Virus record (IMG/VR): IMGVR_UViG_3300027833_001471
Span: 1 to 57,330 of that record
Strand: one strand, 5' to 3'
Source of the DNA: a virus
Taxonomy: Duplodnaviria; Caudoviricetes
Length of the DNA: 57,330 bases
The position numbers and the translations under genes were made by a program. Of this stretch, positions 9,596 through 50,355 are shown piece by piece (position 1 is the stretch's first letter; the number at the start of each line of letters is the position of its first letter). The notes under the pieces are model-generated. The model was given only the letters and a program-made list of their open reading frames with translations, ran no database searches and was not told the DNA's origin.

Positions 9596-10573
9596 ATGAA
9601 CGAAAAATTTACAAACGCAATTAACCGTGTCGAACAATCGTGTCCACCTATTTGGATGATGCGTCAAGCAGGTCGATACCAGAGTTCCTACATGCAACTC
9701 AAAGAACAATATAACTTTATGCAAATGTGTAAACTTCCGCAAATAGCGGCTAAGGTTGCTATGTTGCCTATTGATGAATTTGATTTTGATGTTGCTATCT
9801 TGTTTAGTGACATTCTTTGGCATGTCGAAGGATTGGGTCTTCCATTGGCGTTTGATCCTAGCCCAAAGTTTGAATTTCATTTATCCGAAGAAAATTACAA
9901 GAACCACATGTGTATTGAGACAGCAATGGAACACATAAACTTCCAAAAGGTTGCATTGGAAACCACAAGAGATATGTTGCCCAGTAGAAAAAGTTTGATT
10001 GGGTTTGTTGGCGGTCCTTGGAGTCTTCTTAACTATGCTTTAGGAGATAATAAGGTATCACTTGAGTTCAAAACGATGTATTTGAATGATGTTATTATTC
10101 CTCTTATGGCTAGAAGTATCAGAGCGCAGAAGTTAGCAGGTGCTGAGGTAGTCATGATCTTTGACAGTGGTTTGCATAATATGTCTAAAATATATTATGA
10201 GAACAAGTATCTCCCAATGATGGAACAGTTATCCGCAATCGGAAAAGTGGGTTACTACACACGTGATTTGCCTAATGGTTCTTTACCTAAAGTTAAGAAA
10301 ATGGAATGGGCTGGTATTGGTATCGACTCCACCCAAGACTTGGTAAAAACTTTGAAGACACATACCAATGGGTTTGTCCAAGGCAATTTTGACGAACAGC
10401 ATATGTTATTGGATACTAAACTTTATCATTATGAATTAGATAAATGGTTAGAAAGTTTGGATGGTGTTGACACCACTGGTTGGGTATGTGGATTGGGTCA
10501 TGGTATTCACAAACACACTCCAACAGATCACATAAAATACTTTATTAATCAAGTAAGGGATAAGTTTGAATAA
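9596..10573 (+). CDS. hemE: uroporphyrinogen decarboxylase
   Basis: PPIWMMRQAGRY signature, AILFSDIL, IGFVGGPWS, GLGHGI. Confidence 0.95.
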   Translation: MNEKFTNAINRVEQSCPPIWMMRQAGRYQSSYMQLKEQYNFMQMCKLPQIAAKVAMLPIDEFDFDVAILFSDILWHVEGLGLPLAFDPSPKFEFHLSEENYKNHMCIETAMEHINFQKVALETTRDMLPSRKSLIGFVGGPWSLLNYALGDNKVSLEFKTMYLNDVIIPLMARSIRAQKLAGAEVVMIFDSGLHNMSKIYYENKYLPMMEQLSAIGKVGYYTRDLPNGSLPKVKKMEWAGIGIDSTQDLVKTLKTHTNGFVQGNFDEQHMLLDTKLYHYELDKWLESLDGVDTTGWVCGLGHGIHKHTPTDHIKYFINQVRDKFE

Positions 10574-11370
10574 TGTTTGACGATTATGCGGCTTGGTTTA
10601 AAACCTTGCAGAATGATATATGTGACACCGTAGAAGACATTGAATGGGATACTTGTTATAACATGGAAGAGCATAAGAGTCCGACCAAAGAAGGTTGGAC
10701 TCAAATGCATAAAACGATCAGAGGCGATGTAATTGAAAAAGGTACTGTTAATTTCAGTAAAATCAATTCGTCGTTCGATCCTAAGTTCGCAAGTGAAATA
10801 CCTGGGACTGAAGAAAACAATGATTACCAAGCAACTGGTATTAGCGTTGTTCTGCATCCAAAAAACCCCCACGTACCAGCGATGCACTTTAATACACGAT
10901 ACATCAAGACATCAACCAAGGAATGGTTTGGTGGTGGAATGGATGTTACGCCCTGCTTGCCTTTCAATACGGAAGCTTATCATGACGTATTGAAAGAGAT
11001 GTGTGATAAACACGACGAAGCTTATTACCCAAAGTTTAAACAAGCCTGTGATGAATACTTCTTTATTCCACATCGTAATGAAATGCGTGGTGTTGGTGGG
11101 ATATTTTTTGAGTACCACGATCCAAAAGATATGAGTTTTGACTTCGTTAAGGATGTGGGACGAACATTTAATTATCTAGTCAAACATATTACAAATGATT
11201 TGTCTGACCTTTCCTATACTGATGAAGCTAGAAGAATACTAGAAGTTAAGCGTGGACGCTATGTAGAGTTCAATCTGTTGTACGATAGAGGAACAAGATT
11301 TGGTTTCAAAACAGGGGGCAACATGGAAGCTATTCTCATGACACTTCCCCCAAAAGTTAGGTGGGAATAA
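10573..11370 (+). CDS. hemF: oxygen-dependent coproporphyrinogen III oxidase
   Basis: HPKNPHVPAMHFNTRY, WFGGGMD, RGVGGIFF, RGRYVEFNLLYDRGTRFG. Confidence 0.96.
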   Translation: MFDDYAAWFKTLQNDICDTVEDIEWDTCYNMEEHKSPTKEGWTQMHKTIRGDVIEKGTVNFSKINSSFDPKFASEIPGTEENNDYQATGISVVLHPKNPHVPAMHFNTRYIKTSTKEWFGGGMDVTPCLPFNTEAYHDVLKEMCDKHDEAYYPKFKQACDEYFFIPHRNEMRGVGGIFFEYHDPKDMSFDFVKDVGRTFNYLVKHITNDLSDLSYTDEARRILEVKRGRYVEFNLLYDRGTRFGFKTGGNMEAILMTLPPKVRWE

Positions 11371-12107
11371 TGAAGATAGGCGTAAGAGGTAGTGACCTTG
11401 CATTAGCATATGCTGAGAGAGCCTGTAAGGAGCTACAGTGCGACACAGAGGTAGTAATCATCCAAACTGATGGTGATTTGAACCCTAACACTCCTATCCA
11501 CGAGATAGGTGGTAAGGGTGTATTCTGTAATGCTATTGAATATGCCTTAGTGCAAGGTATCATTGATGTTGGTGTTCATAGCTTAAAAGACATGCCCGGT
11601 GATATCGAACACCCTGATCTTGTTGTTGCATCTTATCTAAAGCGCAATAACCCACACGATGTATTGATAGGTAATGTGTTTGAAGGTTGTGTGATTGGTA
11701 CAAGCAGTCCACGAAGAAAAGAACAAATACAAGAATTGTATGGTCATTTGAACGTAGAGATAAAACCTATTAGAGGAAACATAGACACACGTTTACAGAA
11801 ACTTGACGATAAAGAGTACGATGCAATTATCTTAGCAAAAGCTGGTTTAGATGCTCTTGATATATCTAGGATATGCAAACCCTTAGATATCATACCAGCA
11901 GTTGGTCAAGGAACTACTGTATTGCAGTGTAGAAAAGATGATGTTGAAACTATAGAACTTGTTTCTAAAACAAATGATGATCTAACCATGAGACAGTCTT
12001 TCTTAGAAAGAGCATTGCTAAAAGGTATTATGGGAGACTGTAGTACATCAGTTGCCGCCTTTGCTTATGATGATGCGCCCATTAAAATGGATGTTGTTTA
12101 TTATTGA
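11370..12107 (+). CDS. hemC: hydroxymethylbilane synthase (porphobilinogen deaminase), short C-terminus
   Basis: IGVRGSDLA, GGKGVF, VHSLKDMP, GTSSPRR, IRGNIDTRL, PAVGQG, cofactor Cys in GDCS. Confidence 0.93.
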   Translation: MKIGVRGSDLALAYAERACKELQCDTEVVIIQTDGDLNPNTPIHEIGGKGVFCNAIEYALVQGIIDVGVHSLKDMPGDIEHPDLVVASYLKRNNPHDVLIGNVFEGCVIGTSSPRRKEQIQELYGHLNVEIKPIRGNIDTRLQKLDDKEYDAIILAKAGLDALDISRICKPLDIIPAVGQGTTVLQCRKDDVETIELVSKTNDDLTMRQSFLERALLKGIMGDCSTSVAAFAYDDAPIKMDVVYY

Positions 12108-12132
12108 CAACTTCATGACTTCATGATATGAT
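12104..12132 (+). promoter_or_regulatory. sigma70-like promoter TTGACA-17-TATGAT
   Basis: Consensus match overlapping the hemC stop. Confidence 0.65.
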
Positions 12133-12183
12133 ATAGAGATCATAAACGTAATATATGATTTGTAAGTCATAAGGAAGATTGTC

Positions 12184-12819
12184 ATGAGCGTTACGGATTA
12201 CACCGTATCACCAATAACTATACAAGAAGCTACACCGTTTGTTGTTGATTGGCATTACTCCAAGAATACGAATGGCTTGGCTACTCGTTTCTGTTTCGGT
12301 CTTTTCGATGGAACTGAAATGATTGGTGTTATGATATATGCGTATCTAGGCATGGCAAGTGTTTGGAAGAAGTATGGGGAAGTTGAAACAGACGTTGTTG
12401 AATTAAGACGATTGTGCTGTATTGATGACACCCCTAAGAACACGGAGAGTTACTTCATAGCTCAGACTATTAATTGGTTGAGGCAGAATACAGATTGTAA
12501 AGTTGTTGTCAGTTATGCTGACAGTATGCAAGGGCATGTAGGCACTATATACTATGCATCAAACTTTTACTATTTGGGTATGACTGCAAAGGGTAGATCG
12601 ATAAGGATTAAAGGTAATGATCGTCTGTATCACGAAAAGACAATACGGACTTACTACACACCTAAGAATGGCGAGAGGCGTCTTAAACCATACGCACAAA
12701 AGATTAAGGAACAGCTAGAGAACGGCGAAGCAGAATACGTTCATAGTAAAGGCAAACACATATTCGTATATCCTCTCAATAAGAAGGAAAGACGGAAGTA
12801 TAAAATGAAAGCAACTTAG
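12184..12819 (+). CDS. Mom-like GNAT-fold DNA modification protein
   Basis: WHYS, VELRRLC, KNTESYFI, VVSYAD...GHVGTIYYASNF motifs of the Mu Mom family. Confidence 0.8.
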   Translation: MSVTDYTVSPITIQEATPFVVDWHYSKNTNGLATRFCFGLFDGTEMIGVMIYAYLGMASVWKKYGEVETDVVELRRLCCIDDTPKNTESYFIAQTINWLRQNTDCKVVVSYADSMQGHVGTIYYASNFYYLGMTAKGRSIRIKGNDRLYHEKTIRTYYTPKNGERRLKPYAQKIKEQLENGEAEYVHSKGKHIFVYPLNKKERRKYKMKAT

Positions 12820-12820
12820 A

Positions 12821-14413
12821 ATGACTGATGTGAAACTTATGCTAGGCAATTGCTTAGATCGACTTAAAGACCTTGATGATAATTCTGTGGATAGTATCGT
12901 TACTGATCCACCTTATGGAATTGATTTCATGGGTAAGAAATGGGATTACGATGTTCCGTCCACAGAGATTTGGGAACAAGCAATGAGAGTTCTCAAACCA
13001 GGTGGTTATCTTCTAGCATTTGCTGGTACACGTACACAGCATCGCATGGCAGTTCGTATTGAAGATGCTGGTTTCGAAATCAGGGATATGATCGCTTGGG
13101 TATATGGTAGTGGATTTCCTAAGTCACATAATGTTAGTAAGGCTATTGATAAGCATAGTGAGAAACCAGAAACAAATGAAAAAATAATTGAATTGAAAAC
13201 CCAACTTATTGAAATGTTTGATCAGTGTGTGTTGACCAGAAAGAAAATAGATGAAAAATGTGGTTTTCGTGCTAGTAACTATTTGACACTTCCTTCTGAA
13301 ACTAAAAAATATGATCCATGGGTTAATATACTACCGTCACATGACAAATGGAAAATAATAAAAGAAGTTATTGGCGCTAAAGATGATTTGGATATTGATA
13401 CCTTGTATAATGATATTGAACGTGAAGTAATTGGAACACAGACAAAAGCAAGAAGCACAAGTGGTAAATCAGCATTACCCACAGTTGGTGGTGATGTCAT
13501 ATACGAAACTTGGACAATAACTGCGCCCGCTACTGATGCCGCAAAACAATGGGAAGGTTGGGGTACAGCACTCAAACCTGCCCTAGAACCTATTACAGTT
13601 GCTAGAAAACCATTAGGGGAAAAGACCGTTGCCGCTAATGTTTTGAAGTATGGCACAGGTGGTATCAATATTGATGCTAGTCGTATTCCTACTAATCCTG
13701 ATGTTGATGATGCACGACTTGGTGGGAATGGTTCTTGGAAAACGGATGGAATGGCGGTAAATGCGTATGGTAAGTTCGCAGGAACCGAAAACACTTCATC
13801 TGAGCAAGGTCGTTTCCCTACCAATCTTATTCACGATGGTTCTGAGGAAGTCACGAGTGGATTTCCTGATACTAAGGGTAGGTCAAATAAGGGATCAAGC
13901 AGTTCAACCAAAGTGGATGGCGGGGGTGTGGTATATGGAAAATACACTGGAGAACTGGAATGTGGCACATCCGCTAACCGTGACCCTATCGGTTTTCAAG
14001 AAGGTTCTGCCGCACGTTTCTTCTATGTACCAAAGACATCTAAGAAAGATCGTAATAATGGGCTAGAGAACTTTACACCAAAGGCTACAGCATCATCTGA
14101 GTTCAGACCAAATCATGCAGAGAAAGCAGACAACGGTGAAGATGGCAATCCATATGGACGTTGGACGCCTACACAGAACAACCACCCTACTGTGAAGCCC
14201 ACAGACCTTATGCGCTACCTTGTGACTATGGTGACGCCAAAAGGTGGCACAACCCTTGATCCGTTCATGGGTAGTGGTTCTACAGGACGTGGCGCAAAGT
14301 TAGGTGGGTTCAACTTTATCGGCATTGAGTTAGATGAAAACTACTTGGAGATTGCAAAGGCTAGGATTGATGCCATATCTACTGAGGTTACGCTAGAAGA
14401 ATTTTTTAAGTAA
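12821..14413 (+). CDS. site-specific DNA methyltransferase (N6-A/N4-C, beta class) with internal insertion
   Basis: VTDPPYG, HPTVKP, LDPFMGSGST, GIELD. Confidence 0.92.
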   Translation: MTDVKLMLGNCLDRLKDLDDNSVDSIVTDPPYGIDFMGKKWDYDVPSTEIWEQAMRVLKPGGYLLAFAGTRTQHRMAVRIEDAGFEIRDMIAWVYGSGFPKSHNVSKAIDKHSEKPETNEKIIELKTQLIEMFDQCVLTRKKIDEKCGFRASNYLTLPSETKKYDPWVNILPSHDKWKIIKEVIGAKDDLDIDTLYNDIEREVIGTQTKARSTSGKSALPTVGGDVIYETWTITAPATDAAKQWEGWGTALKPALEPITVARKPLGEKTVAANVLKYGTGGINIDASRIPTNPDVDDARLGGNGSWKTDGMAVNAYGKFAGTENTSSEQGRFPTNLIHDGSEEVTSGFPDTKGRSNKGSSSSTKVDGGGVVYGKYTGELECGTSANRDPIGFQEGSAARFFYVPKTSKKDRNNGLENFTPKATASSEFRPNHAEKADNGEDGNPYGRWTPTQNNHPTVKPTDLMRYLVTMVTPKGGTTLDPFMGSGSTGRGAKLGGFNFIGIELDENYLEIAKARIDAISTEVTLEEFFK

Positions 14414-14420
14414 AAAGTTC

Positions 14421-14449
14421 TTGACACGAAAAAAGAATCGTTCTATACT
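14421..14449 (+). promoter_or_regulatory. sigma70-like promoter TTGACA-17-TATACT with GAATC in the spacer
   Basis: Consensus match. Confidence 0.7.
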
Positions 14450-14476
14450 GAGTTCTGTAAAACGAAAGGAAATATT

Positions 14477-14773
14477 ATGAATAAATGGATATATGATTGT
14501 TGGAATGTAGTAATGGATCACGAAAAGAATCCACTAAGCAACATTCCTGACTTTGCTACACGACATATGATTATGCAAGTTCTTGCATGGATGTGGTGTA
14601 TTACATTTGCTATTATTGTAGGTAGCATGTGGGCAGGAGTAATTAGTATGATGTTACATGCATTAGTATTAGCCGCAATTGCAGTAACAGTAGCAACATT
14701 TGAAACAGCGAAGCGTAAACCAAATGTATTTGGGGCATACAATGGTCGTGCCAATGGGGGAGAACATGAGTAA
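14477..14773 (+). CDS. membrane hypothetical protein (2 TM)
   Basis: Hydrophobic helices; AAAGGA RBS. Confidence 0.75.
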   Translation: MNKWIYDCWNVVMDHEKNPLSNIPDFATRHMIMQVLAWMWCITFAIIVGSMWAGVISMMLHALVLAAIAVTVATFETAKRKPNVFGAYNGRANGGEHE

Positions 14774-16996: not shown

Positions 16997-17350
16997 TTAC
17001 TTCAATCCTTTTAATTTAGCTTTCATCATTTCGTGGGCATCTCTAGGTGTCTCCGTGGCTTCTGGCGATAGTCTGGGTTCGGTTTCCCCCCTGCCAAGAG
17101 CAACACTGGATTGTACCTGTTTTCTGCCACGACTTTCTTTTCGATAGCTACCCTCAATACCAAAATATCCGACTTCTTTTTTGAGCCTTTCAAGTCTTCG
17201 CCTGAGATGGAAAACTTTTTCATTTAAGTCTATCCCTATGCTATTTAGTTGTTGCTCTGAAAATTCCGTCCCAATATGGCGGTAAGTCTTGGGTTGCCAT
17301 GTAATTACAACGTTCAATCCAAATATCGTAATATTCATCCATTTTGCCAT
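16997..17350 (-). CDS. hypothetical protein overlapping the cyclase 3' end
   Basis: ORF track; start uncertain. Confidence 0.5.
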   Translation of the reverse strand: MAKWMNITIFGLNVVITWQPKTYRHIGTEFSEQQLNSIGIDLNEKVFHLRRRLERLKKEVGYFGIEGSYRKESRGRKQVQSSVALGRGETEPRLSPEATETPRDAHEMMKAKLKGLK

Positions 17351-19292
17351 TAAAACCTCCTTTTAGTTGCTCACACATAGTGATAACTTCACCAAACTTT
17401 TGTTCTTTATAACACTTGTGCATAAAGTTGTGGCTTAGTTGGTTTGCACTATTGAATGCCTTGTCTGATCCACTCAAGTCTAATGCTGTGTATATGTCTA
17501 ATCCAACTGTCTTTCCTTTTACTGCAAGGCAATCAAGTTGAAGGTAAAAGAAATCTTTCTTGGTAGCTTGGTATGTAGAAGGTCCGACAATCAACACAAC
17601 ACCATAACCCTTACAGGCACTTTCTAATCTAGCCGCCGTGGATACCGCATCTCCAAGAATGTCATAGCTGTGTCTTGCAGTCGATCCCATTTCACCAATG
17701 TAACCTAGACCAGTGTTGATCCCAGCGCCCATAGCAACAGGTGGTTTGCCAGCAGCAACAAGCTTAGCGCTAAACTCATCTACCGCTCTTAACATAAGGA
17801 AACATGTTTTAACACCATTTCTAGGATGATCTGGATCATTGATAGGTGCGTTGTGAATATGCATAGAGGCGTCACCAATGTACTTAATGATCATTCCGTT
17901 TGCGTCTAAGACTGGCTTAGTAATTGCATCCATGTAACCATTCATGACATCAGTAAGACCTTTAACGTCATCTCCAAAACTTTCGCCCAATGGAGTGAAG
18001 CCACGCAAGTCACTAAACACAATAGAAACTTCTTTCTTCATGCCTTCTTTGACAAGAGCAGGATTTTCTTGAAGTAGGCGTACTACTTCTGGCGAAGCGT
18101 AACCTGCGAATTGTTTTTTGATTGCTTGCTTCTGTAGAAACTCATCTACAAACCTGAGTACATACTGTACAAGACCAACGAGCAAGAGCATAGCACTAAT
18201 GGTAACGCCATCAATAAGAATATTCGAAGTAGTAAAGACATAGATGGAACCCCCAATAAGTCCAGTGATTGTCATGACAAAAACACCAAGACCTATGAAA
18301 GTCCAATATGATAATAAAATTATGATAAGACCACTCACAACTAATGCGGCTAACTCGCCCCATGCTTTTGCATCTGCATTTCGTGTGATGTTACTCTCGT
18401 TAAATACAGTACCAAGCATTGCCGCCTGTATTTCGTGTGGGAACACAGAACCCATCGCAGTAGCAAGTGGTTGTGTAATACCTGATGCAGTCGTACCTAC
18501 AAAAACCACAGCCCCACCGAAGTCATTTGGTAATTCAGAAAGGCTTACTGAGTTGTATCCTTGTGACCAATCAACCCATACTTCACCAGCTTCGTTTGTT
18601 GGTATGATACCGAATTGAGGTATTCTTAACTTATCTACGCCCAAAGGTGATAACTTAATTTGGAAGCTTGGATCACCAGCAAGAATACGTAATACTTCCA
18701 TTGTAACGTTTGGATATAACGTACCACCACTCTCAAAAACTAAAGGTGCGCGTCTAGTAACACCATCTATTTCTGGGAAGGTGTTGATAATTCCTGACCC
18801 CACTGCATTAGACTCAATGACATCGACGTTAGCTGTAATGCCAAGTACGCTTGGAATAACATACATATAATCGCTATTAATAATAGCGGCTCCCGGATTA
18901 ATTGGCTCATTTTTATTCTCCTCAGTACCTAGCATTGTCACTATGACAGGGTAGTTTTGCAAGGTTAATGCAAGTAAGTCGTCTTCACCAGACCTATCTT
19001 CCTCACTCATCAAAACATTAAACACTACAAGCCCAGCGCCACGACTGTACAAATCTTCGATAATAGCACCGTATTCACCACGAGGGAAAGGCCACTGACC
19101 ATATTGATTCAATGCTTCTTCATCTATATTAACTGCGTAAATGTTATTTGGGACAATTTCTTGGCTTACAATTAACTGATCGAAATAACGTAAACGCATG
19201 CTTTCAATAAAGGATGGGTTTACAACATATAACCAAGCAAATAAACCTAGCATCATTACAGCCCATATCGGGGAAAATAGTATTTTTCTCAT
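17241..19292 (-). CDS. CHASE2-domain class III adenylate cyclase
   Basis: GQWPFPR and DGVTRR (CHASE2), 3 TM, FSDLRGFT, IKYIGDA, GINTG, YDILGDAVSTAARLE. Confidence 0.93.
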   Translation of the reverse strand: MRKILFSPIWAVMMLGLFAWLYVVNPSFIESMRLRYFDQLIVSQEIVPNNIYAVNIDEEALNQYGQWPFPRGEYGAIIEDLYSRGAGLVVFNVLMSEEDRSGEDDLLALTLQNYPVIVTMLGTEENKNEPINPGAAIINSDYMYVIPSVLGITANVDVIESNAVGSGIINTFPEIDGVTRRAPLVFESGGTLYPNVTMEVLRILAGDPSFQIKLSPLGVDKLRIPQFGIIPTNEAGEVWVDWSQGYNSVSLSELPNDFGGAVVFVGTTASGITQPLATAMGSVFPHEIQAAMLGTVFNESNITRNADAKAWGELAALVVSGLIIILLSYWTFIGLGVFVMTITGLIGGSIYVFTTSNILIDGVTISAMLLLVGLVQYVLRFVDEFLQKQAIKKQFAGYASPEVVRLLQENPALVKEGMKKEVSIVFSDLRGFTPLGESFGDDVKGLTDVMNGYMDAITKPVLDANGMIIKYIGDASMHIHNAPINDPDHPRNGVKTCFLMLRAVDEFSAKLVAAGKPPVAMGAGINTGLGYIGEMGSTARHSYDILGDAVSTAARLESACKGYGVVLIVGPSTYQATKKDFFYLQLDCLAVKGKTVGLDIYTALDLSGSDKAFNSANQLSHNFMHKCYKEQKFGEVITMCEQLKGGFNGKMDEYYDIWIERCNYMATQDLPPYWDGIFRATTK

Positions 19293-19405
19293 TCTTCTTT
19301 ACACTCGCATTTATAGCAGACGTCATTCACACACTCTTTGCAATCTGGACTGTAACAGTGACAACCATGACCGCATTTCTTACAGGTTCTTGGTGTTCCT
19401 TGCAT
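19289..19405 (-). CDS. Cys-rich metallothionein-like micro-protein (38 aa)
   Basis: MQGTPRTCKKCGHGCHCYSPDCKECVNDVCYKCECKEE; GGAG RBS; ATGA overlap with the cyclase. Confidence 0.7.
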   Translation of the reverse strand: MQGTPRTCKKCGHGCHCYSPDCKECVNDVCYKCECKEE

Positions 19406-19431
19406 GTATTAACTCCATATAAAGATACATG

Positions 19432-19439
19432 TATTTATA
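19432..19439 (-). promoter_or_regulatory. T4-type late promoter TATAAATA
   Basis: Exact match upstream of the micro-ORF and cyclase. Confidence 0.7.
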
Positions 19440-21222: not shown

Positions 21223-21230
21223 TTATGATA

Positions 21231-28964: not shown

Positions 28965-28974
28965 GGAATATATT

Positions 28975-39326: not shown

Positions 39327-39327
39327 T

Positions 39328-40110: not shown

Positions 40111-41221
40111 ACTCGAATTCTTTGTCTACATATCTTAACACATGATGACCCATGAACCTTTCGGTAATTGTTTTGAACATTTCATCATCTTGATTTGCAA
40201 CATATCTTTTCAAAACATTTGTCTGTTCGATACGTTTACTTGACGTCTCTTTAGCCCAATCCCAAAACTCATTTTCGTATATAGAACCACCATGGTAGAT
40301 CAGGTTGATTAAATCTTCTACTGCACGATAGTTTAGGATACATAGTTCGTTAGCTTTATCTTGGGTAATTTCTCCACGTATGTATTGAGAATGAATTTCG
40401 GCATTCTTGACTGTCATGTAAAGAGAGTTTGCACTCATTGGTTCAAAGAACACTGCTCGGTTCCCACTCTTTAGTATTTTGCCATCAATCGTTTTCTTAC
40501 AATAATATGGTTTTAAATCAAATGTTCTAAAATTACTCCTATCATCATCTGATGCTTCCGTGATGCGAATAAGTTCATCTTCTGCTTCTTTACGTGTGCA
40601 AAACTCATTATTGTATAGGAAACCATGGGATGTTCTGTGTTGTAGTGGGATAACAAACATCCAACCATACTTGTGGGCAACGTGTTTAGTAAAGCCAAAA
40701 TCAGATGGGGTTGGATCATCGTAAACTAATGCAGAGTTTAAAACAAGGTTACACTCTTCGTAATCAGAGAAATTTGTTGGTCTGCCACGACAATCAATTA
40801 CATAATCATATTCTGTCAAGTCTTTATATTCTACGTTAGCATCAACACGTCTATAATTAGAGTACATCTTTTGTAATCTCTTCAATCCCATTTCGGCAAA
40901 ATCACGAGCATCAAAGTGAATAGCATGATAACCAGATTGGAATGGAAATATGATTTCTTTTTCGCGCCAATCAATATACTGCGTACCATACTTAGTCGTG
41001 CTGTTGAGTTCTTTTGCTTCTGTTGCGAATATGAAATCAAATGCTTGACCAATTGCAAACGTCACTTCAGACGTGGTACTTTCTCCAACCCCAAGAATGG
41101 GTTTGTTGCTATCGTAGATGTGAGTTACCTCGCAGTCAATGCCTCTGTTCTTAAAGTCTTTTAGTATACAACCAGTAGTTAAGATGCCTGCACTACCAGC
41201 ACCAAGTATTGCAATCTTCAT
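40091..41221 (-). CDS. flavin-dependent tryptophan halogenase-like protein
   Basis: GAGSAG, GVGESTT, GWMFVIPL, FFEPMSA. Confidence 0.8.
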   Translation of the reverse strand: MKIAILGAGSAGILTTGCILKDFKNRGIDCEVTHIYDSNKPILGVGESTTSEVTFAIGQAFDFIFATEAKELNSTTKYGTQYIDWREKEIIFPFQSGYHAIHFDARDFAEMGLKRLQKMYSNYRRVDANVEYKDLTEYDYVIDCRGRPTNFSDYEECNLVLNSALVYDDPTPSDFGFTKHVAHKYGWMFVIPLQHRTSHGFLYNNEFCTRKEAEDELIRITEASDDDRSNFRTFDLKPYYCKKTIDGKILKSGNRAVFFEPMSANSLYMTVKNAEIHSQYIRGEITQDKANELCILNYRAVEDLINLIYHGGSIYENEFWDWAKETSSKRIEQTNVLKRYVANQDDEMFKTITERFMGHHVLRYVDKEFEFGYFDD

Positions 41222-41730
41222 TCGTCACCCCTAACTTCAAAATATCTATCAGCATTTAATAACCAAATATTCTGATCTACCCCAAACACTTCTTCAGTGC
41301 TTACTAGGTCTACCAAACCATTTCTTTCGAGAATGTAATATAGCTTATTAAGTCTTCCCATCTTGCCACTTGCATCGTTATTTATGTTGGTTGTAATGTA
41401 TATTGGATCGTTAGTAGCATATATGACCTTTGGAAGATGGTAGTAGAACATCCAACAGTTCATATGGTTTTTGCTCAAACCCTTTGGTCTTGAGTATAAT
41501 TGACATCCTCTATATAAAGCCCTAACGCCATCTCTAAATTGATGTACACCAGATATGCCTACCATCTTGCCATCAACTGATGTCTCGAACCACACGCCAC
41601 CATCGTCAAGAGTCTTTTGGAAATTCATGACTTCTAACGAGTTGTTGTTTTTATAACCAAGTTTGTCACATTCTTCTATAAAAGTTAGAAGTTGGGGTGT
41701 CACTTCGTGTAGTTGATTAGTGCGTATCAT
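41218..41730 (-). CDS. GNAT-fold-like hypothetical protein
   Basis: DGKMVGISG...RALYRG pattern; weak. Confidence 0.45.
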   Translation of the reverse strand: MIRTNQLHEVTPQLLTFIEECDKLGYKNNNSLEVMNFQKTLDDGGVWFETSVDGKMVGISGVHQFRDGVRALYRGCQLYSRPKGLSKNHMNCWMFYYHLPKVIYATNDPIYITTNINNDASGKMGRLNKLYYILERNGLVDLVSTEEVFGVDQNIWLLNADRYFEVRGDE

Positions 41731-42974
41731 GAGAACTTGAATTCTAAATCTTTGTATACGGTAGTTGACCCAAACATCGCTGGTAATAGTTCTGGCTCTT
41801 TCGTAATCTCAAAATTGTCAAACCTATCAAGCAAGCTATTAATTATCATTTCAAGAAAGTGCTTGACAAGGAAGTCGCCAGTACAGTGGTGAGGTCCGTA
41901 AGCAAGGGTTACTGGAAGTGGTTCGTCATCTCGTTCAAGACTAAACTCTAGGGGATTTTTAAAGTATTTGGGGTCACGGTTTGCTCCATATGTATACAAA
42001 AGAATTCTACCATTTGCATCAAACTTGTATCCATGGTAATCTATGTCTTCTGTGATATCACGTATGCCACCCTTTAGTGGGGCGAGACGCATACTTTCTC
42101 TTGCAAACTTTGAGACAAGTGTTCTATCTGCTTTAATTCTCTTGACAATATCAGGATACTTGGCAAGGTTCATAGCTAGGTTCTGGTACATACTCAGAGC
42201 AAAGGTTGGAATTACAACAGTCCATAAGCTTTGGATAAACATATATCCCATCCTACGTGGGTTGTCATTGTATATCCATTGCTTGTCACTCAAGTTCTTC
42301 GTCATATTAATCATTGTATCGTCATCAACACCCTCAAGATGATAATAGCTAATAGCTTCATCTACGATACGTGCAAACATATTATAGAACTCAGTAGTTT
42401 CGGCAACTGGCTTATCGTAGTCAAAGTCTGGGTTGAAATTAGAGAAGACACCCCCAGGGCGCATCCACTCGTGAAAGCCATCCTTAACATAATCCTCTGA
42501 CACATCTAGTTCTGCCCAAGGAAATTCTATAGTCTGTATCTGAGTGTCGGTAACAATCCTACCGATGACGTCATAAGACACGAATGGTTTGTTCTTTTCT
42601 ATCTTATCGAACCATTTGTCTATATTTGACTTCAGCGCGTCAATCATAAAGCCAGAACGTCTTTTCGCCCAATTAAGGCTTTCCTTCTTCGCAAGATGAT
42701 GATGCGGACCTTCTCTTAGTGTCAATGCATAACCTGCTCTCCAAATACCACCAAGTGGTGTTGGGTCAAAAGGTGCTGGTGATGTCTTAGCTAAGCTGAA
42801 TTCTTCATTCATCTTTGAGGCTTCTTTGAGCCTATCCATTGAGAAGATTATCCAGTGTTTGTATATTGGATGCCAAAAGAAACCTCTTGGTTCGTTTTCG
42901 AAACAAAAAGTAGTGTGTTCATCCATGTTATACAGGAAATCGGGATTAACGATTTCAAAATCATTTTTTCTCAT
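41727..42974 (-). CDS. cytochrome P450
   Basis: ESMR (ExxR), ANRDPKYF, heme-ligand loop AYGPHHCTG. Confidence 0.9.
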   Translation of the reverse strand: MRKNDFEIVNPDFLYNMDEHTTFCFENEPRGFFWHPIYKHWIIFSMDRLKEASKMNEEFSLAKTSPAPFDPTPLGGIWRAGYALTLREGPHHHLAKKESLNWAKRRSGFMIDALKSNIDKWFDKIEKNKPFVSYDVIGRIVTDTQIQTIEFPWAELDVSEDYVKDGFHEWMRPGGVFSNFNPDFDYDKPVAETTEFYNMFARIVDEAISYYHLEGVDDDTMINMTKNLSDKQWIYNDNPRRMGYMFIQSLWTVVIPTFALSMYQNLAMNLAKYPDIVKRIKADRTLVSKFARESMRLAPLKGGIRDITEDIDYHGYKFDANGRILLYTYGANRDPKYFKNPLEFSLERDDEPLPVTLAYGPHHCTGDFLVKHFLEMIINSLLDRFDNFEITKEPELLPAMFGSTTVYKDLEFKFS

Positions 42975-42989
42975 AATATACTCTAATTG

Positions 42990-43292
42990 TTAGAGGTCGG
43001 CAGTCTCTGGTGTAAATGAAATAGTCCAACCATCTGAAATCAAAGATGCCTTTGCAGAAGCAGAAACATTAGCCATAAGAGTAGTGTATTGAGAAGCGGC
43101 TTCATCTGTCCAGTTTGTTACAATAGTATGTGTCCCTGAGTCTACCGACGTAGTTGTTGTTCTACCACCATTTGTAGTTTGCTCATTGAGAAAAGATAAT
43201 ACATCAGAAGGCAGATAACTAGCAATATGAGAAAGAGCCTCATCTGTAGTGATATCTGTTGGTGGTGTGAAAGTAACTGTTTGTTGTACCAT
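42990..43292 (-). CDS. Thr/Ser-rich 100-aa protein heading the late P450 operon
   Basis: AAGGAG RBS; TATAAATA at 43311-43318. Confidence 0.75.
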   Translation of the reverse strand: MVQQTVTFTPPTDITTDEALSHIASYLPSDVLSFLNEQTTNGGRTTTTSVDSGTHTIVTNWTDEAASQYTTLMANVSASAKASLISDGWTISFTPETADL

Positions 43293-43310
43293 ATTTAATC
43301 TCCTTTTGTC

Positions 43311-43318
43311 TATTTATA
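43311..43318 (-). promoter_or_regulatory. T4-type late promoter
   Basis: TATAAATA on the minus strand. Confidence 0.7.
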
Positions 43319-43823
43319 CGTTATCCCAGAAACTCTTCTTCTTTCTACCATGTACGATTAAATGCAACCTATCTTCGTTAGAGTTGTTCTCAACCCAATG
43401 TGGGTAATGCACATTAAGGACAAATGATGCCCCAGAGTGATAAGGAACTTCTTTCCCATCTAATATGAACTTACTTCCTTTTGGATATGTTATTGACATA
43501 TTAAGAGTGTCAAGCCAATTGTGTTCTGGTACATCTCTATGTTCAGCAATCATACCACCAGACTTTATAAGCAGAAACCTACAATCATCTATTTTATCAT
43601 ATGGTAATGACTTAATAAAATCTGTAGTCTTAGGACATTTCAATCCTACTTCTGTGATATTATCTTTTAAGAACAAAGATACAGCAAACCAGTCTTTATG
43701 ACCATCTTGTGGTCTATTGATTGTTAATGTTTCTTTGACTGATAAGTATTCTTGTTCTATATCATGACAAGGAACATTAAAGTTCATTTTAACCCAAGGG
43801 ACGTCACTGCTTCTATAATACAT
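43314..43823 (-). CDS. Fe(II)/2OG oxygenase, aspartyl/asparaginyl beta-hydroxylase-like
   Basis: EHRD (HxD), HWVENNS, RLHLIVH. Confidence 0.78.
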   Translation of the reverse strand: MYYRSSDVPWVKMNFNVPCHDIEQEYLSVKETLTINRPQDGHKDWFAVSLFLKDNITEVGLKCPKTTDFIKSLPYDKIDDCRFLLIKSGGMIAEHRDVPEHNWLDTLNMSITYPKGSKFILDGKEVPYHSGASFVLNVHYPHWVENNSNEDRLHLIVHGRKKKSFWDNV

Positions 43824-44776: not shown

Positions 44777-44779
44777 GTC

Positions 44780-45271: not shown

Positions 45272-46231
45272 ATGGACGCACTCACTATATGGATGGTGGT
45301 AGGATTTATATTCGCCGCTTATGCCGTAATTGCAAATGATTCAGTACAAACATTAGGTACATGGATCGCATCAAACAATGAAAAGTTTCATTGGAGAACA
45401 ATGTGGATAGCCGCATCGGCTGTTCTAATCTATACATTATGGTATGGATGGTACATGAATGGTGGAGACATCAGTTATGGACGATTAAACAAAATTCCAT
45501 TTCAAGAAGTAAAATGGTATCACGCACTAGCACCCGCAGTTCTGTTGGGGCTAACACGTTTCGGCGTACCAGTATCAACATCATTCCTAGTTCTATCAGC
45601 ATTCGCTAGTACATTTGTACTAGAAAAGATGTTGATGAAGTCAATGATGGGTTATGCAGTTGCGGCTGTGGCGGCATACGTCATATGGCTCGTAGTAAGC
45701 CGCCTGTTGGACGAAGCGAAGCCTGTTAAAGAAAACCATAAAACGGCATGGAGAGTGGCTCAGTGGGTCACTACAGGCTTCCTGTGGTTCACTTGGTTAT
45801 CGCACGATATGGCTAACATCGCGGTGTTTTTACCACGTCAGTTAGACGTACCATTAATGCTTATGATCACAGCAGTATTTGTGATTGGGCTTGGCTTCAT
45901 GTTTCGTGAAGGTGGTGGTAAGATTCAACAGATTGTAGTCGAGAAACATAACACTCGCTACGTTCGATCTGCTACAATCATCGATCTGGTGTATTGGTTG
46001 ATCCTATACTTCTTTAAGGAACTGAATGATATTCCAATGTCAACGACTTGGGTATTTGTAGGATTGCTTTGTGGGCGTGAATTGGCTATGGCTAGTTACA
46101 CAGGCAAGGCAAAATTTAAGACAGTCTTCCCACTGATTGGGCGAGACTTTATGAAGATGATGGTGGGTCTTGGCGCATCCTTGGGTATCGTGCTACTTAT
46201 CCATTACATCTTAGTACCAAACGGATTTTAA
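45272..46231 (+). CDS. multi-pass transporter, PiT/PHO4 inorganic phosphate transporter-like
   Basis: About 10 TM; IANDSVQTLG and SHDMAN resemble the PiT GANDxAN signatures; PVSTS/PMSTT repeats. Confidence 0.65.
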   Translation: MDALTIWMVVGFIFAAYAVIANDSVQTLGTWIASNNEKFHWRTMWIAASAVLIYTLWYGWYMNGGDISYGRLNKIPFQEVKWYHALAPAVLLGLTRFGVPVSTSFLVLSAFASTFVLEKMLMKSMMGYAVAAVAAYVIWLVVSRLLDEAKPVKENHKTAWRVAQWVTTGFLWFTWLSHDMANIAVFLPRQLDVPLMLMITAVFVIGLGFMFREGGGKIQQIVVEKHNTRYVRSATIIDLVYWLILYFFKELNDIPMSTTWVFVGLLCGRELAMASYTGKAKFKTVFPLIGRDFMKMMVGLGASLGIVLLIHYILVPNGF

Positions 46232-46247: not shown

Positions 46248-46679
46248 ATGAGTAGCTACGAAATTGTTTTGATAATACATATCTTGGCAGTAATATCATG
46301 GATGGCAGGGCTGTTCTATTTGCCAAGAGTAATGGTGTATCATTCCCAAGAGACGAAACCTGGGGATGATATGGATAAAGTTTTCCAAACAATGGAAGTA
46401 AAACTGTTAAGAGCAATAATGATGCCAGCAATGTTTGCCACATTATTCTCTGGTATTGCTTTGATTGGTTTGGGATACGTTGATTGGTCACTCACGTGGC
46501 CTTATGTAAAGCTTGTGAGTGTATTCTTGATGTTTGGCTTTCATGGCTTCTTGAGTAAACAGCGTAAGAACTTTATCAAAGGTGAGAATATCCCATCACC
46601 AAAGAAGATGCGGATATTAAATGAAGTACCTACGATCTTGTTGATCATTATCGTGGCGTCAGTAATTCTTAAATATTAA
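46248..46679 (+). CDS. hemJ: protoporphyrinogen IX oxidase HemJ
   Basis: HILAVISWMAGLFYLPRVMVYH, IMMPAM, RILNEVPT. Confidence 0.93.
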   Translation: MSSYEIVLIIHILAVISWMAGLFYLPRVMVYHSQETKPGDDMDKVFQTMEVKLLRAIMMPAMFATLFSGIALIGLGYVDWSLTWPYVKLVSVFLMFGFHGFLSKQRKNFIKGENIPSPKKMRILNEVPTILLIIIVASVILKY

Positions 46680-46871: not shown

Positions 46872-46911
46872 AGGCTGGATGATTGACATCTGGCCTTTTT
46901 AATGATATATA
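46872..46911 (+). terminator. terminator hairpin overlapping the tmRNA promoter (-35 TTGACA in/at the loop)
   Basis: AGGCTGGATG-ATTGA-CATCTGGCCT followed by TTTT; -10 TATATA at 46906. Confidence 0.65.
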
Positions 46912-46917
46912 CTATAT

Positions 46918-47230
46918 GTGAACGTTGAAGTGACGTAAATACGGATCGGACTTGGGGGCAGTACCCAACGCCTCCACCACAAGCACATTACGCCTTACTG
47001 CAATAAGGTGTTTTTGCAGAGACACAGACCTCACGAGGGTTGAAGATGATGTGCTTTTGATGGGGGCGAACTAGGATCGACGGACGGAATAGCTGAGTGG
47101 AGTTCATCGGGTGATCGCGTATAGATCAATTAAACTAAATGCAAATGAAAATTTCGCACCATCTGGATTTGCCTTAGCGGCATAATCACAGGGGGTTGGC
47201 GACTTACCTAGCAACAGAAAAGTCGTACTT
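46918..47230 (+). ncRNA. ssrA: circularly permuted (two-piece) tmRNA, alphaproteobacterial type
   Basis: Acceptor 3' arm with GGCAGTAC T-loop and CGCCTCCACCA (ends 46979) precedes the 5' arm GGGGGCG (47062) with G3:U70; tag ORF 47141-47185 ANENFAPSGFALAA; outer ends approximate. Confidence 0.92.
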
Positions 47231-47256: not shown

Positions 47257-48069
47257 ATGAATAGACTATTAACAACAACAGCAGTGATGGTACTGCTAAC
47301 GGGAACTGCACATGCAGACCAAACTTTGATTTCACCAGCAGCACCACTAGTAACTGGCTCAATCGAAACTGTAATCGCAGAAACTGGAACAACTGATAAG
47401 TACGGAGCAACTACATCTTTTGATCTCGACGTTAACACACCAGACGGTATTGTGACTGGCGGCATTTCTTTTAAAGCAACTCCAAGTACATCAGTATCTG
47501 TTGATGAATGGAATATTGCTACAACTGTAGGCGCGGCAACGTTGTCTTTTGGTGACCAAGGTAACATCTGGTTCGATACAGAAAGTGCCGCAGTAAACGG
47601 TACAATCGAAGAGCCAACGATGGCTAAAGAGAGCTTGCAAGTATCAGCAATGGGTGCAACTGTTGCACTTGGTTTTGATGCAATCGCCACAGACGTCACA
47701 GATTTGGAAAACGTCCAAGTAGGATATGGTTTTGACGCAAGCATTCTTAGTGTTGCAACCGTAGCTGACTATAACGTAGACTCAAAAGAGTGGGTTCTTG
47801 CGGGTCGTGCAGACACAGCAGGTATGCTTGAAGGTGTACGTCTTGGTGGTGCAGTATCATACGGTTCGCTAAGTGAGAAAACAAACTTCGAAGCAGATGC
47901 TACTGTAATGGGGATCACTGGTTACTTGAACGGTGACACAGATGACCTAACGCAAAACGTTGGTGCATCATACATCATGGGTGAAGTATTGACAGTAGAA
48001 GGCGCAGTAAACTATAACTTGAATACAGAAGTGGTTGCACCATCTGTAACGTTGTCTTTCGACTTCTAA
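47257..48069 (+). CDS. outer-membrane porin, Rhodobacterales-like
   Basis: Signal peptide ending AHA, amphipathic beta-strands, C-terminal LSFDF. Confidence 0.78.
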   Translation: MNRLLTTTAVMVLLTGTAHADQTLISPAAPLVTGSIETVIAETGTTDKYGATTSFDLDVNTPDGIVTGGISFKATPSTSVSVDEWNIATTVGAATLSFGDQGNIWFDTESAAVNGTIEEPTMAKESLQVSAMGATVALGFDAIATDVTDLENVQVGYGFDASILSVATVADYNVDSKEWVLAGRADTAGMLEGVRLGGAVSYGSLSEKTNFEADATVMGITGYLNGDTDDLTQNVGASYIMGEVLTVEGAVNYNLNTEVVAPSVTLSFDF

Positions 48070-48168: not shown

Positions 48169-48197
48169 CAAGAAAGCAGTGCAAAGAGAGGTATATT

Positions 48198-48740: not shown

Positions 48741-48769
48741 TTGACAAATCGGAGTTTTTGTTATACAAT
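48741..48769 (+). promoter_or_regulatory. sigma70-like promoter TTGACA-17-TACAAT
   Basis: Consensus match. Confidence 0.65.
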
Positions 48770-48803
48770 AAATCTATTATAAACCACATAAGGAGTGTCC
48801 AAG

Positions 48804-48971
48804 ATGCAAGATCAAGCATTAGAAGAAATTAACCTTAAACCAAAGCCGAAGGCTGAACGACTTGCCAAAGATGTTGCGGCAAGGAAGCGTCGAAAAGAAG
48901 CTAAAGGTATTATAGAAACTCGAACGACTAATGAGTATAATAGACTACGTAGGGAACGTAAAAAGAAATAA
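48804..48971 (+). CDS. small very basic protein (55 aa)
   Basis: Manual translation MQDQALEEINLKPKPK...RRERKKK; AAGGAG RBS; TAATG coupling. Confidence 0.65.
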   Translation: MQDQALEEINLKPKPKAERLAKDVAARKRRKEAKGIIETRTTNEYNRLRRERKKK

Positions 48972-49672
48972 TGTTATTTAAATTTAAAAAAAATACAATA
49001 ACAGTAGACGCTTTTACTGATCAGGAAAATGTTGCCAAGACGCCAATTGCTTCTAGCACAAAATATGTTCCTGATTGGTTTAAGTCTATGAAGCCTACCA
49101 AGGCGTATGCCCAAGATGGGATGGTGGTTGTCTCTAGTACATTCAAGAAGTGTCCTGGAATGATCGACAATCTAAAGCACAGCTTCACTATCCCAGCATG
49201 GTCTGACTTCATTGTCAAGGCTACAGATAATGGCATCGTCAAACAGTTCCCTCATTCTGAATTTGATTATGGGGCGCAATATCACAATGACCCCGAAACA
49301 TCACCTATTGGAGCATTCGCACCAAAAGTGCATGTTAAGATTTTGTCGCCGTGGTATCTCAAGGAAAAGTCAGGCGTAAACTTTTATCAGTCACAGGCGT
49401 TCTGGTCATTCAACGCAACCAATTCTACTATATTGATACCACCGGGTGTTGTTAATTATAAGCACCAACACAGTACACATATCAACATGTTCATAACTAA
49501 AGATTTGCAATGTGATTTTGAACGTGGTGACGCATTAATGTATTTGCACCCAATGTCTGAGGACAAAGTTGTTATCAAAACACATGTAGTAGATACAAAT
49601 GAATACAACAAGATCAAAGGGTCTACATATTACCCCAAGTTCACAAATGGGTATAGGGAGATGATGGAATGA
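48971..49672 (+). CDS. conserved marine-phage hypothetical protein
   Basis: PDWFKSM, TFKKCPG, KILSPW, PGVV motifs. Confidence 0.7.
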   Translation: MLFKFKKNTITVDAFTDQENVAKTPIASSTKYVPDWFKSMKPTKAYAQDGMVVVSSTFKKCPGMIDNLKHSFTIPAWSDFIVKATDNGIVKQFPHSEFDYGAQYHNDPETSPIGAFAPKVHVKILSPWYLKEKSGVNFYQSQAFWSFNATNSTILIPPGVVNYKHQHSTHINMFITKDLQCDFERGDALMYLHPMSEDKVVIKTHVVDTNEYNKIKGSTYYPKFTNGYREMME

Positions 49673-50355
49673 GTTTTTCGTTATGGGGGCGTTTGGATAA
49701 TTACGCTGATGATTTGACTAAGCGTTTCGACAAATCTTTTGTGAGATACGACAACCCTAAGTACACTGAAAACATGAAGTTCGAAGGTTGGACAGACACG
49801 TTTTGGCATTCAGATAAGATCGGTAAGTGCCATCTAAAAACAATTCAACCAAAAGATGTTAAGTCTTTGTGGTTGATGCACATCAACATTTTTCCTAAAG
49901 AGGGCATTGAACTTCCAATCTTGGGCTTTGATATCGTAGCAGGACCCAAAAAGATCACTGGATCGTTTATGGACTTCTCACCATTACATGGGTATGGGCA
50001 TCCATACAACGAATATATGAAACAAGCCATCTTAGGATTAGAATGGATTAAACCACGTGAGTTACCAGATTGGGCTAAAGAAATATTCTCAGATGATATG
50101 ATTGCTGTTGGCAACATACGAGAGGGGCATGAGTTGGATCAGTTCATCTCAGTCACATCTCAACTAGTGACATATTACTTGAAGAACTTGGAAGAACAGG
50201 CAGTTGTATCAAACCGTGATACACTTCCTATACTGAATAAATACTGCTCAAACCAAAAGCTAAATCCTCATTTGCACAGGTCAATTTTGGCTATGGGCAT
50301 CAGTGAAGAAGACAAGGAATCTTACGTAAACAACGTACTCTTCGAGGAAAAATAA
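49669..50355 (+). CDS. pcyX: ferredoxin-dependent bilin reductase, PcyX/PcyA-like
   Basis: LWLMHINIFP, LPILGFDIVAG, GSFMDFSP, RELPDWAKEIFS, YCSNQKLNPH. Confidence 0.85.
   Translation: MSFSLWGRLDNYADDLTKRFDKSFVRYDNPKYTENMKFEGWTDTFWHSDKIGKCHLKTIQPKDVKSLWLMHINIFPKEGIELPILGFDIVAGPKKITGSFMDFSPLHGYGHPYNEYMKQAILGLEWIKPRELPDWAKEIFSDDMIAVGNIREGHELDQFISVTSQLVTYYLKNLEEQAVVSNRDTLPILNKYCSNQKLNPHLHRSILAMGISEEDKESYVNNVLFEEK

Follow-up and report, generated by a model that had tools for sequence, protein, structure and literature searches.

Genes for making and breaking heme, including a conserved hemE-hemF-hemC operon, in a fragment of a T4-like marine myophage

Why would a phage carry genes for making heme as well as genes for breaking it down? 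The question is raised by the IMG/VR record IMGVR_UViG_3300027833_001471, called the window here: 57,330 bases in one linear viral contig, the whole record available for this phage. It encodes HemE, HemF and HemC in one operon and, some 34 kb downstream, HemJ, a heme oxygenase and a PcyX-type bilin reductase (Table 1). As predicted from their sequences, these proteins would catalyse four of the six reactions between porphobilinogen and heme, plus the two that lead from heme to a bilin. The hem and bilin genes are auxiliary metabolic genes: they encode metabolism of the host type, are flanked by phage genes, are intact and are under selection. As for their purpose, they may keep protoporphyrin and heme synthesis going after the host has been shut off, for respiration, for phage hemoproteins and as substrate for the heme oxygenase and PcyX, a reading to which we give an even chance.

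The original prediction, which was made from the letters of the sequence, had named these genes from signature motifs, and profile searches place all of them far above chance. HemE matches the Pfam URO-D model over positions 3-344 of 346 with 191.9 bits (cut-off 23.9), and its stretches MRQAGRY, FSDIL, QGN.D and LGHGI align with PDB 3CYV. The Arg-rich MRQAGRY, the Asp of FSDIL and the His of the C-terminal LGHGI presumably serve in substrate binding and catalysis. Against the NCBIfam equivalog TIGR01464 it scores 187.6 bits, under the cut-off of 302.95, which makes it a superfamily member whose equivalence is not certified by score. HemF exceeds the cut-off of the equivalog NF003727 (314.3 bits, cut-off 297) and matches PDB 3E8J with an E-value of 8e-59, with which its core motifs HPKNPHVP, IPHRNE.RG.GG.FF and GRY.EFNL align. 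HemC scores 224.6 bits against TIGR00212, above the cut-off of 164, and its LKDMP, SSPRR, RGNIDTR and GDC stretches align with PDB 4MLQ and 1PDA at the catalytic Asp, the Arg cluster and the Cys that holds the dipyrromethane cofactor; these positions are invariant in 15 phage-type sequences. HemJ covers positions 4-144 of the 146 in PF03653 (165.9 bits, cut-off 34.2) and reaches 124.5 bits against TIGR00701, just under the cut-off of 138.05. Its sequence includes an N-terminal helix containing a His, to which we presume a functional role belongs.

The two enzymes of the bilin branch are also recognizable. The heme oxygenase scores 67.3 bits against PF01126 (cut-off 23), with no NCBIfam match, and its TWAHHQAAE (proximal His) and ELHGGQI (distal Gly-Gly helix) align with solved enzymes such as PDB 5KZL. 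The best solved relative of the reductase is the PcyX structure 5OWG, aligned over residues 3-225 with an E-value of 9e-41; the best PcyA reaches 4e-12. Judging by this relationship, the product is most likely phycoerythrobilin. One PcyX-like phage enzyme is described, in the available portion of that study, as yielding phycocyanobilin instead (Wegner 2024, PMC11480375).

The genes hemE, hemF and hemC are bound closely together. The stop of hemE overlaps the start of hemF, and the stop of hemF that of hemC, in the sequence TAATG at both junctions, which bears out the translational coupling that had been proposed for them. For hemC the list of open reading frames (ORFs) gives a GTG start at 11361; the ATG at 11370 is likelier and yields 245 amino acids. 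A promoter-like site of the 11-of-12 class lies at 8344-8372, before the gene for an ATPase-GNAT fusion protein, and a second lies at 12104, after hemC, with none comparable before hemE. This arrangement suggests that the ATPase-GNAT gene and hemE-hemF-hemC form a four-gene transcription unit. Promoter-like sites are no more frequent than expected by chance (19 against 16.3 and 15 against 18.1 in shuffles), and only the position of the four 10-11-of-12 sites was used, as a hint. The ATPase-GNAT protein matches phrog_11143 (function unknown, E-value 3e-111), and its gene is kept upstream of hemE in the related loci L002, L003 and L023. In addition, contigs from three metatranscriptome libraries extend over hemE and hemF, running across the hemE/hemF and hemF/hemC junctions, and one 211-base piece from such a library has zero differences from the window. 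In two libraries some parts past position 11,500 or so are uncovered, from which no conclusion is drawn. These contigs fit transcription of the hem genes.

The surroundings of these genes are those of a phage. Profile searches of the window located both subunits of topoisomerase II at 163-3647 and gp59, gp32, UvsX and a gp41-type helicase at 50920-55494, and the G+C content is even across the window (35-41%), with no step at the hem genes. When deposited phages were searched with gp41 and gp32, the Methylophilales phage Melnitz was top-listed, at 51% and 56% identity, followed by cyanomyophages and Sinorhizobium phages. The features of the pelagimyophages and Melnitz-like phages are all present, namely T4-type replication genes, CsgG/CsgF, a two-piece transfer-messenger RNA (tmRNA) and a heme oxygenase with a bilin reductase. 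The available text of two studies treats curli genes and a two-piece tmRNA as hallmarks of pelagimyophages and Melnitz (PMC7029224; Buchholz 2022, PMC9004378). The window is thus a fragment of a T4-like marine myophage of this group. CheckV puts its completeness at 26%, from which a genome of about 220 kb would follow, and at this completeness the absence of a gene from the window says little about the whole phage genome.

The operon recurs in related phages. A scan of IMG/VR with hemF returned 38 related stretches in 36 loci, at 57-95% identity, and hemE, hemF and hemC occur together in 33 of these loci, in the order E-F-C in 17 and F-C-E in 16; two of the three loci that lack the full trio are cut by a contig end. 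The junctions of the window with topoisomerase, Mom, lipase and CHASE2-cyclase/curli genes recur in L001-L003, L010 and L023, and the closest relative, an 80-kb contig (G004), carries baseplate, tail and DNA polymerase genes alongside hemE-F-C. Moreover, near-identical sequence was found in 20 public runs from 16 studies, 10 of the runs holding at least half of the sampled words. Compared pairwise with relatives, the ratio of nonsynonymous to synonymous substitution rates (dN/dS) is 0.06-0.15 for hemE, 0.06-0.09 for hemF, 0.10-0.19 for hemC, 0.08-0.13 for hemJ, 0.02-0.08 for the heme oxygenase and 0.06-0.24 for the bilin reductase. The phage core genes gp32 and UvsX give 0.05-0.11, and the hem and bilin genes are under purifying selection like these two.

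The recurrence of the operon bears on the suspicion that host DNA was mis-assembled into the contig or that recently captured genes are decaying in it. The window is a metagenome-derived fragment, its HemE is very divergent and its HemC is truncated, all of which would suit such an origin. However, the phage-gene junctions repeat in the independent contigs listed above, near-identical sequence comes from 16 studies, the frames are open with dN/dS near 0.1, the G+C content is even and the short length of HemC is constant across 120 listed homologues. Since many independent assemblies show the same junctions, chimerism, which the original prediction had already thought unlikely, is excluded. A copied host operon is also contradicted by the arrangement in bacteria, described next, and an artefact of either kind is largely refuted and highly improbable.

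The bacterial arrangement was examined in the best 80 cellular hemF loci; their search was seeded by query peptides and is biased to close relatives. No hemE or hemC lies within 6 kb of hemF in 79 of the 80, and hemC lies elsewhere than hemF in four SAR11 genomes. Because the bacterial hemF loci have no hemE or hemC nearby, the operon is a phage construction and not a captured host operon. Most of the loci (76 of 80) carry the titles Pelagibacter, Pelagibacteraceae or Pelagibacterales, at 39-48% identity. A hemF tree of 102 distinct sequences, rooted on two Caulobacteraceae and made after two of the 117 available had been dropped for short or interrupted matches, unites the 23 phage tips in one clade (support 1.0). 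The sister of this clade (support 0.93) is a contig from an uncultured alphaproteobacterial single-cell genome (L128, 1-1164), on which hemF adjoins hemJ, the other genes are bacterial and hemF is 55% identical to that of the window. It is possible that this contig points to a donor or host lineage other than typical SAR11.

The host is most likely a marine alphaproteobacterium. A link to the Alphaproteobacteria had been made at the outset, and at the level of this clade it holds through the sister of the phage hemF genes and through the type of the tmRNA, which accompanies three tRNAs in the window. The tmRNA gene (46879-47229, plus strand) is two-piece or permuted, lies between hemJ and the heme oxygenase gene and encodes the tag ANENFAPSGFALAA. 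As a finer host marker it was rejected: it differs from four SAR11 copies and from one other alphaproteobacterial copy, against all of which it carries an insert of about 70 nt, and does not discriminate between them. A public run that bears an organism name instead of a metagenome label contains the hemE-hemC region (8400-14500), with several contigs identical to the window; it may offer a clue to the host or to a co-culture.

The HemC of the window is unusually short. Its alignment reaches residue 250-251 of the 312-313 in solved enzymes and the chain stops about 10 residues later, so that it ends some 60-70 residues early; there is no match to the C-terminal domain PF03900, and the three-domain architecture is incomplete. 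The predicted structure is of good quality (pLDDT 89.9, TMq 0.84-0.87 to hydroxymethylbilane synthase structures) and has a β-hairpin alone after the Cys. Among the best 120 listed of 2,886 homologues, all have 242-254 amino acids and 117 match PF01379 only, and some sit on contigs of 192-336 kb. In view of this constant length, the 245-residue form is a fixed trait of the lineage of the window. The SAR11 frames measure 312-324 amino acids, and the phage lineage with the order F-C-E-B has a 273-residue form with a weak PF03900 match.

The pathway in the window has gaps, some of which are filled in relatives. In six frames of the window there is no match to Aminotran_1_2, HEM4 or Ferrochelatase, the models for hemA/alaS, hemD and hemH, and tblastn with the hemB and alaS of a relative found no match either; hemA, hemB, hemD and hemH had been placed outside the window from the start. 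An ORF at 47257-48069 was considered as a hidden HemD and rejected, as it has no family match and protein-atlas searches led to viral hypotheticals and a porin-like lead. In the lineage with the order F-C-E, a hemB gene stands directly after hemE in 12 loci and encodes 282 amino acids (Pfam ALAD E-value 9e-53). Measured against the family model of 317 positions, the product of this phage hemB (12670-13518 in L036, and 11 further loci) is short; it contains a Cys-rich stretch, DICLC...GHCC. An alaS-type gene lies within a few kilobases in L005, L007, L009, L011, L015, L017, L018, L019 and L025 and occurs in the records G003 and G001, 11 loci or records in all. One contig of 107 kb (G003, CheckV 31%) combines alaS, hemB, hemC, hemE, hemF, heme oxygenase and bilin reductase. 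The models for hemD (HEM4) and hemH (ferrochelatase) found nothing in five phage records, two of them complete genomes, and matched 12 and 9 of 14 control genomes, respectively. Beside the hem genes of L036, the richest cluster, lie those for a phosphoribosyl pyrophosphate synthetase, a fatty-acid desaturase and a methyltransferase-like protein; neither hemD nor hemH is among them.

The genes differ in how widely they are distributed. hemJ is rarer: its 10 IMG/VR loci (73-99% identity) all belong to the lineage of the window. The bilin reductase is common, with 167 related stretches. Among the best 80 loci of these, the heme oxygenase gene lies just upstream of the reductase in 72, the reductase of the other 8 starts less than 900 nt from the locus start, and gp59, gp32, UvsX and gp41 follow downstream in most. 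The original prediction had called for a survey of co-occurrence in IMG/VR; the trio occurs in 33 of 36 hemF loci, and six contigs, the window included, have both hemF and the bilin reductase. Two complete relatives, of 221 kb and 195 kb, have the heme oxygenase and the reductase and no hemC, hemE or hemF.

This distribution is an argument for a reading in which the upstream genes feed the heme oxygenase and PcyX, and in which the selected product is phycoerythrobilin, biliverdin or carbon monoxide instead of heme, the bilin acting as chromophore, signal or antioxidant in the infected cell. The heme oxygenase/PcyX pair has a fixed place upstream of gp59-gp32-UvsX-gp41 and its reductase is far more widespread than hemF (167 against 38 stretches); every hemF contig that reaches both regions, all six of them, has the reductase. 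Such a nesting of hemF within the range of the reductase fits an add-on that supplies substrate. Moreover, making new heme only to degrade it is not explained by a net gain of iron. However, the nested pattern comes from few cases, most contigs being fragments, and such a route depends on a ferrochelatase that the phage does not encode. Searches of the window gave no bilin-binding protein, lyase or ferredoxin, and none of the 26 small ORFs read resembles a Cys-rich ferredoxin; the available portion of the 2024 study knows no bilin function in such hosts (Wegner 2024, PMC11480375). A bilin as the selected end product is in our judgement quite possible, though less probable than a sustained supply of heme.

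A 233-residue protein is encoded between the heme oxygenase and the reductase, its gene overlapping the reductase start in ATGA; it is found in 12 related loci with dN/dS of 0.10-0.20. It was considered as a bilin-binding protein or a partner of the reductase and rejected for want of any Pfam, NCBIfam or PDB sequence match. A protein-atlas search gave DUF6065 as a lead, on 12-23% of the members of two clusters, and the structure model is poor (pLDDT 66), with weak dUTPase-like matches at an E-value near 1e-3 and TMq of 0.3.

In the reading that heme supply itself is sustained, HemC, HemE and HemF would probably be translated from a single transcript of early type, beginning ahead of the ATPase-GNAT gene. 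Host HemD and ferrochelatase would fill the two gaps, so that porphobilinogen could flow on to protoporphyrin IX and heme, and this flow would be maintained while host gene expression shuts down. The heme would be used in the respiratory chain and in hemoproteins of the phage, for example the P450 encoded in the window. Phage heme oxygenase and PcyX, presumably served by a host ferredoxin, would convert some heme to biliverdin and, most likely, phycoerythrobilin. The related proposal of the original prediction, that flux is pushed to heme and on to bilins for respiration, iron release or diversion, is plausible.

Several observations weigh against this reading. For one cell both to build heme and to degrade it seems a contradiction, unless the two activities fall at different times or the phage is really after the bilin. 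That the upstream genes are dispensable is indicated by the two complete relatives without hemC, hemE and hemF, and the five records without hemD and hemH indicate that the phage cannot drive the pathway alone. HemE and HemJ both stay below their NCBIfam equivalog cut-offs, and most of domain 3 is missing from HemC. HemE has no close relative in cells: among 281 matches in 301 sampled Pseudomonadota genomes the identity never exceeds 34%, and the SAR11 genome does not give one of the best. SAR11 genomes have a G+C content below the 35-41% of the window. Finally, metatranscriptome libraries such as those that gave the hem contigs can contain DNA.

A separation in time is the essence of another reading, in which synthesis sustains cytochromes and Fe-S and heme enzymes early in infection and the heme oxygenase later frees iron for the Fe-S enzymes of the phage, namely its radical SAM proteins, with the help of an IscA-type carrier. 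The window encodes three radical SAM enzymes, hydroxylases of the Fe/2-oxoglutarate type and an A-type Fe-S carrier. The carrier has GGGCSG and CGCGESF motifs and 69.9 bits against TIGR00049 (cut-off 58.8), so that an IscA-like protein, noted at the outset together with a P450, is indeed present. The P450-like protein is likely a heme user (44.6 bits against a cut-off of 22.8); its sequence holds the stretches ESMR and YGPHHCTG, which we take to be the ExxR motif and the site of the Cys ligand, and is 91-100% identical in L037, L052 and L055. Promoter-like sites occur separately, ahead of the hem operon and behind the heme oxygenase gene, and iron supply is discussed for hemO-pcyX in the available part of one study (Wegner 2024, PMC11480375). 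On the other hand, promoter-like sites are no more numerous than in shuffled sequence, and the heme oxygenase would suffice for iron release, which leaves the strongly selected bilin reductase superfluous. An economy of iron and redox cofactors is in our judgement improbable as the main purpose.

A more far-reaching possibility is that the phage clade has built a bilin route of its own, starting from glycine and succinyl-CoA, with the bilin as the selected output and the 245-residue HemC as a new minimal architecture. Putative members of this route across the clade would be AlaS, the short HemB, HemC, the divergent HemE, HemF, HemJ, the heme oxygenase and PcyX; the host would consistently supply just uroporphyrinogen III synthase and ferrochelatase. 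We think this rather unlikely. If it were true, a bilin would act in an infected heterotroph as a new kind of chromophore, signal or protectant. Whatever the purpose of the genes, the short HemC is a natural and conserved minimal form that would reveal what domain 3 of hydroxymethylbilane synthase is needed for. Since their discovery, there has been no explanation for the heme oxygenase and bilin reductase genes of phages that infect non-photosynthetic hosts. The same phages carry up to six enzymes of the biosynthetic arm, which turns the matter into the testable question of whether heme or a bilin is the goal. They also extend what is known of how far viruses reprogram cofactor metabolism in bacteria that are very abundant in the ocean.

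Table 1. Positions of the hem and bilin genes and of associated genes in the window (aa, amino acids)
Feature	Position	Strand	Basis of assignment
P-loop ATPase fused to GNAT acetyltransferase	8486..9559	+	Pfam AAA/ABC_tran + Acetyltransf_7/1
hemE, uroporphyrinogen decarboxylase, 325 aa, divergent	9596..10573	+	Pfam URO-D E 2e-56
hemF, oxygen-dependent coproporphyrinogen III oxidase, 265 aa	10573..11370	+	Pfam E 1e-85
hemC, short hydroxymethylbilane synthase, 245 aa	11370..12107	+	Pfam Porphobil_deam E 5e-58; TIGR00212
A-type Fe-S cluster carrier (IscA/ErpA/HesB type), 94 aa	15017..15301	-	GGGCSG, CGCGESF motifs; phrog_17776
Cytochrome P450-like protein	41727..42974	-	Pfam p450 E 1e-11, 44.6 bits vs 22.8, residues 284-388
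hemJ, protoporphyrinogen IX oxidase, 143-aa membrane protein	46248..46679	+	Pfam UPF0093 E 9e-49
Heme oxygenase, probable ATG start 48198, 180 aa	48150..48740	+	Pfam Heme_oxygenase E 2e-18
233-aa protein, no assigned function	48971..49672	+	phrog_7084 (function unknown), E 8e-16
PcyX-type ferredoxin-dependent bilin reductase, 228 aa	49669..50355	+	Pfam Fe_bilin_red E 3e-15

The neighbours of the hem genes are partly conserved with them. Directly after hemC follow a Mom-family protein (E-value 3e-42) and a 530-residue N6/N4 DNA methylase (12184-14413, plus strand), a pair that stands behind the second 11-of-12 promoter-like site and probably serves in DNA modification. In L001 and L003, Mom has 99% identity, compared with only 80-96% for the adjoining hem genes. 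On the other side, an HNH endonuclease gene (7177-7692, plus strand) lies directly after a tRNA-Gln, between an epimerase and the hem region, and is 94-97% identical in L002, L003 and L023. The gene adjoining hemJ (45272-46231, plus strand, 319 amino acids) is the best-conserved gene of its region across lineages, at 73-99% identity, and lies near the hemE/hemB cluster in the F-C-E lineage. It was rejected as a pathway member: it has only a sub-threshold PHO4 match, none in NCBIfam or PHROGs, and also occurs without hemJ.

Three other clusters occupy the middle of the window. The first (17241-23244, minus strand) encodes CsgF, CsgG, an ORF without assignment, a FecR-domain protein, a curlin-repeat protein and a 683-residue nucleotide cyclase with a CHASE2 sensor; the cyclase and the FecR protein are kept with CsgG/CsgF in L001, L003, L010, G001 and G003. 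CsgG and CsgF have been published for pelagimyophages and Melnitz, and the available text of these reports does not discuss the CHASE2 cyclase or FecR (PMC7029224, PMC9004378). The second (27960-35414, plus strand) has two SPASM-type radical SAM enzymes, several unassigned ORFs and a 569-residue glycosyltransferase of family GT8, and resembles the variable island described for pelagimyophages. The third (35929-43823, minus strand) consists of a methyltransferase, two Asp/Asn beta-hydroxylase-like proteins, a 683-residue radical SAM protein with a weak B12-binding match, an AMP-binding enzyme fragment, a flavin-dependent tryptophan-halogenase-like protein and the P450. This run of tailoring-type enzymes looks like a small-molecule or peptide-modification cluster. 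In L037, L052 and L055 its identity is 71-100%, except for a small ORF that has 47% in L055.

How much of this is new? The original prediction had held that four upstream porphyrin enzymes in such a phage were not a described system. This has to be narrowed, since papers of 2020 and 2024 partly anticipate it; no literature was found on phage hemE, hemJ and hemB or on the operon. A full-text literature search gave no further report of hemE, hemF and hemC as auxiliary genes of phages. It likewise gave no report of the short HemC, although no search was aimed at a truncated HemC. No genuine hemE or hemF was found in deposited phage records, where the only matches look bacterial or mislabelled, and PHROGs has no family that matches hemE, hemF, hemC or hemJ. 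What has gone unreported is the conserved hemE-hemF-hemC operon, phage hemJ and hemB, the minimal HemC and the fact that hemD and hemH are consistently absent.

Cassettes of hemO-pcyX, viral alaS, curli genes and tmRNA are already published. Viral alaS-hemO-pcyA/X cassettes are also said to be described, for pelagimyophage-like and large freshwater phages, in a 2020 preprint by Chen et al. In the portion of the 2024 study that is available, viral alaS is reported with hemO and pcyX, and phage sequences are said to hint at further heme-pathway genes (Wegner 2024, PMC11480375). These cassettes share with the window the heme oxygenase, the PcyX-type reductase and the kind of T4-like marine phage, and the same purpose, a tetrapyrrole supply sustained in the infected cell, has been proposed for them. 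Like those phages, relatives of the window carry alaS with conserved 5-aminolevulinate synthase stretches. Unlike those cassettes, the window has no alaS and has four later enzymes, HemC, HemE, HemF and HemJ, and an extra gene separates its heme oxygenase from its reductase. The words hemC, hemF, hemJ and coproporphyrinogen do not occur in the main text of that study.

The "deep ecotype" pelagimyophage can be likened to the window by description only. Coproporphyrinogen oxidase and porphobilinogen deaminase are named among its unique genes (Zaragoza-Solas 2020, PMC7029224), and the paper also describes the CsgG/CsgF curli cluster, radical SAM genes and GT8 glycosyltransferases, each of which occurs in the window. 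In the available text of that paper these enzymes receive a single sentence, with no operon structure and no short HemC, and hemE, hemJ, hemB, heme oxygenase, bilin reductase, phycocyanobilin, "bilin" and "porphyrin" are not mentioned.

Among cultured phages, the Pelagibacter phage Mosig has the best match to the reductase (34% identity), and this gene lies beside the Mosig heme oxygenase gene. Melnitz shares the curli genes and the two-piece tmRNA; the accessible part of its description gives it a glutamine riboswitch, whereas Rfam reports none in the window (PMC9004378). Genomes of the Mosig and Melnitz type measure about 141 kb, against the approximately 220 kb estimated for the phage of the window.

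The cyanophage genes ho1, pcyA and pebS likewise provide T4-like marine myophages with a heme oxygenase and a ferredoxin-dependent bilin reductase. The reductase of the window is only 24-31% identical to the cyanophage enzymes, and the cyanophages listed for the reductase are absent among the matches to hemE and hemF. The hosts of cyanophages use bilins in their phycobilisomes, whereas the presumed host of the phage described here is a non-cyanobacterial alphaproteobacterium.

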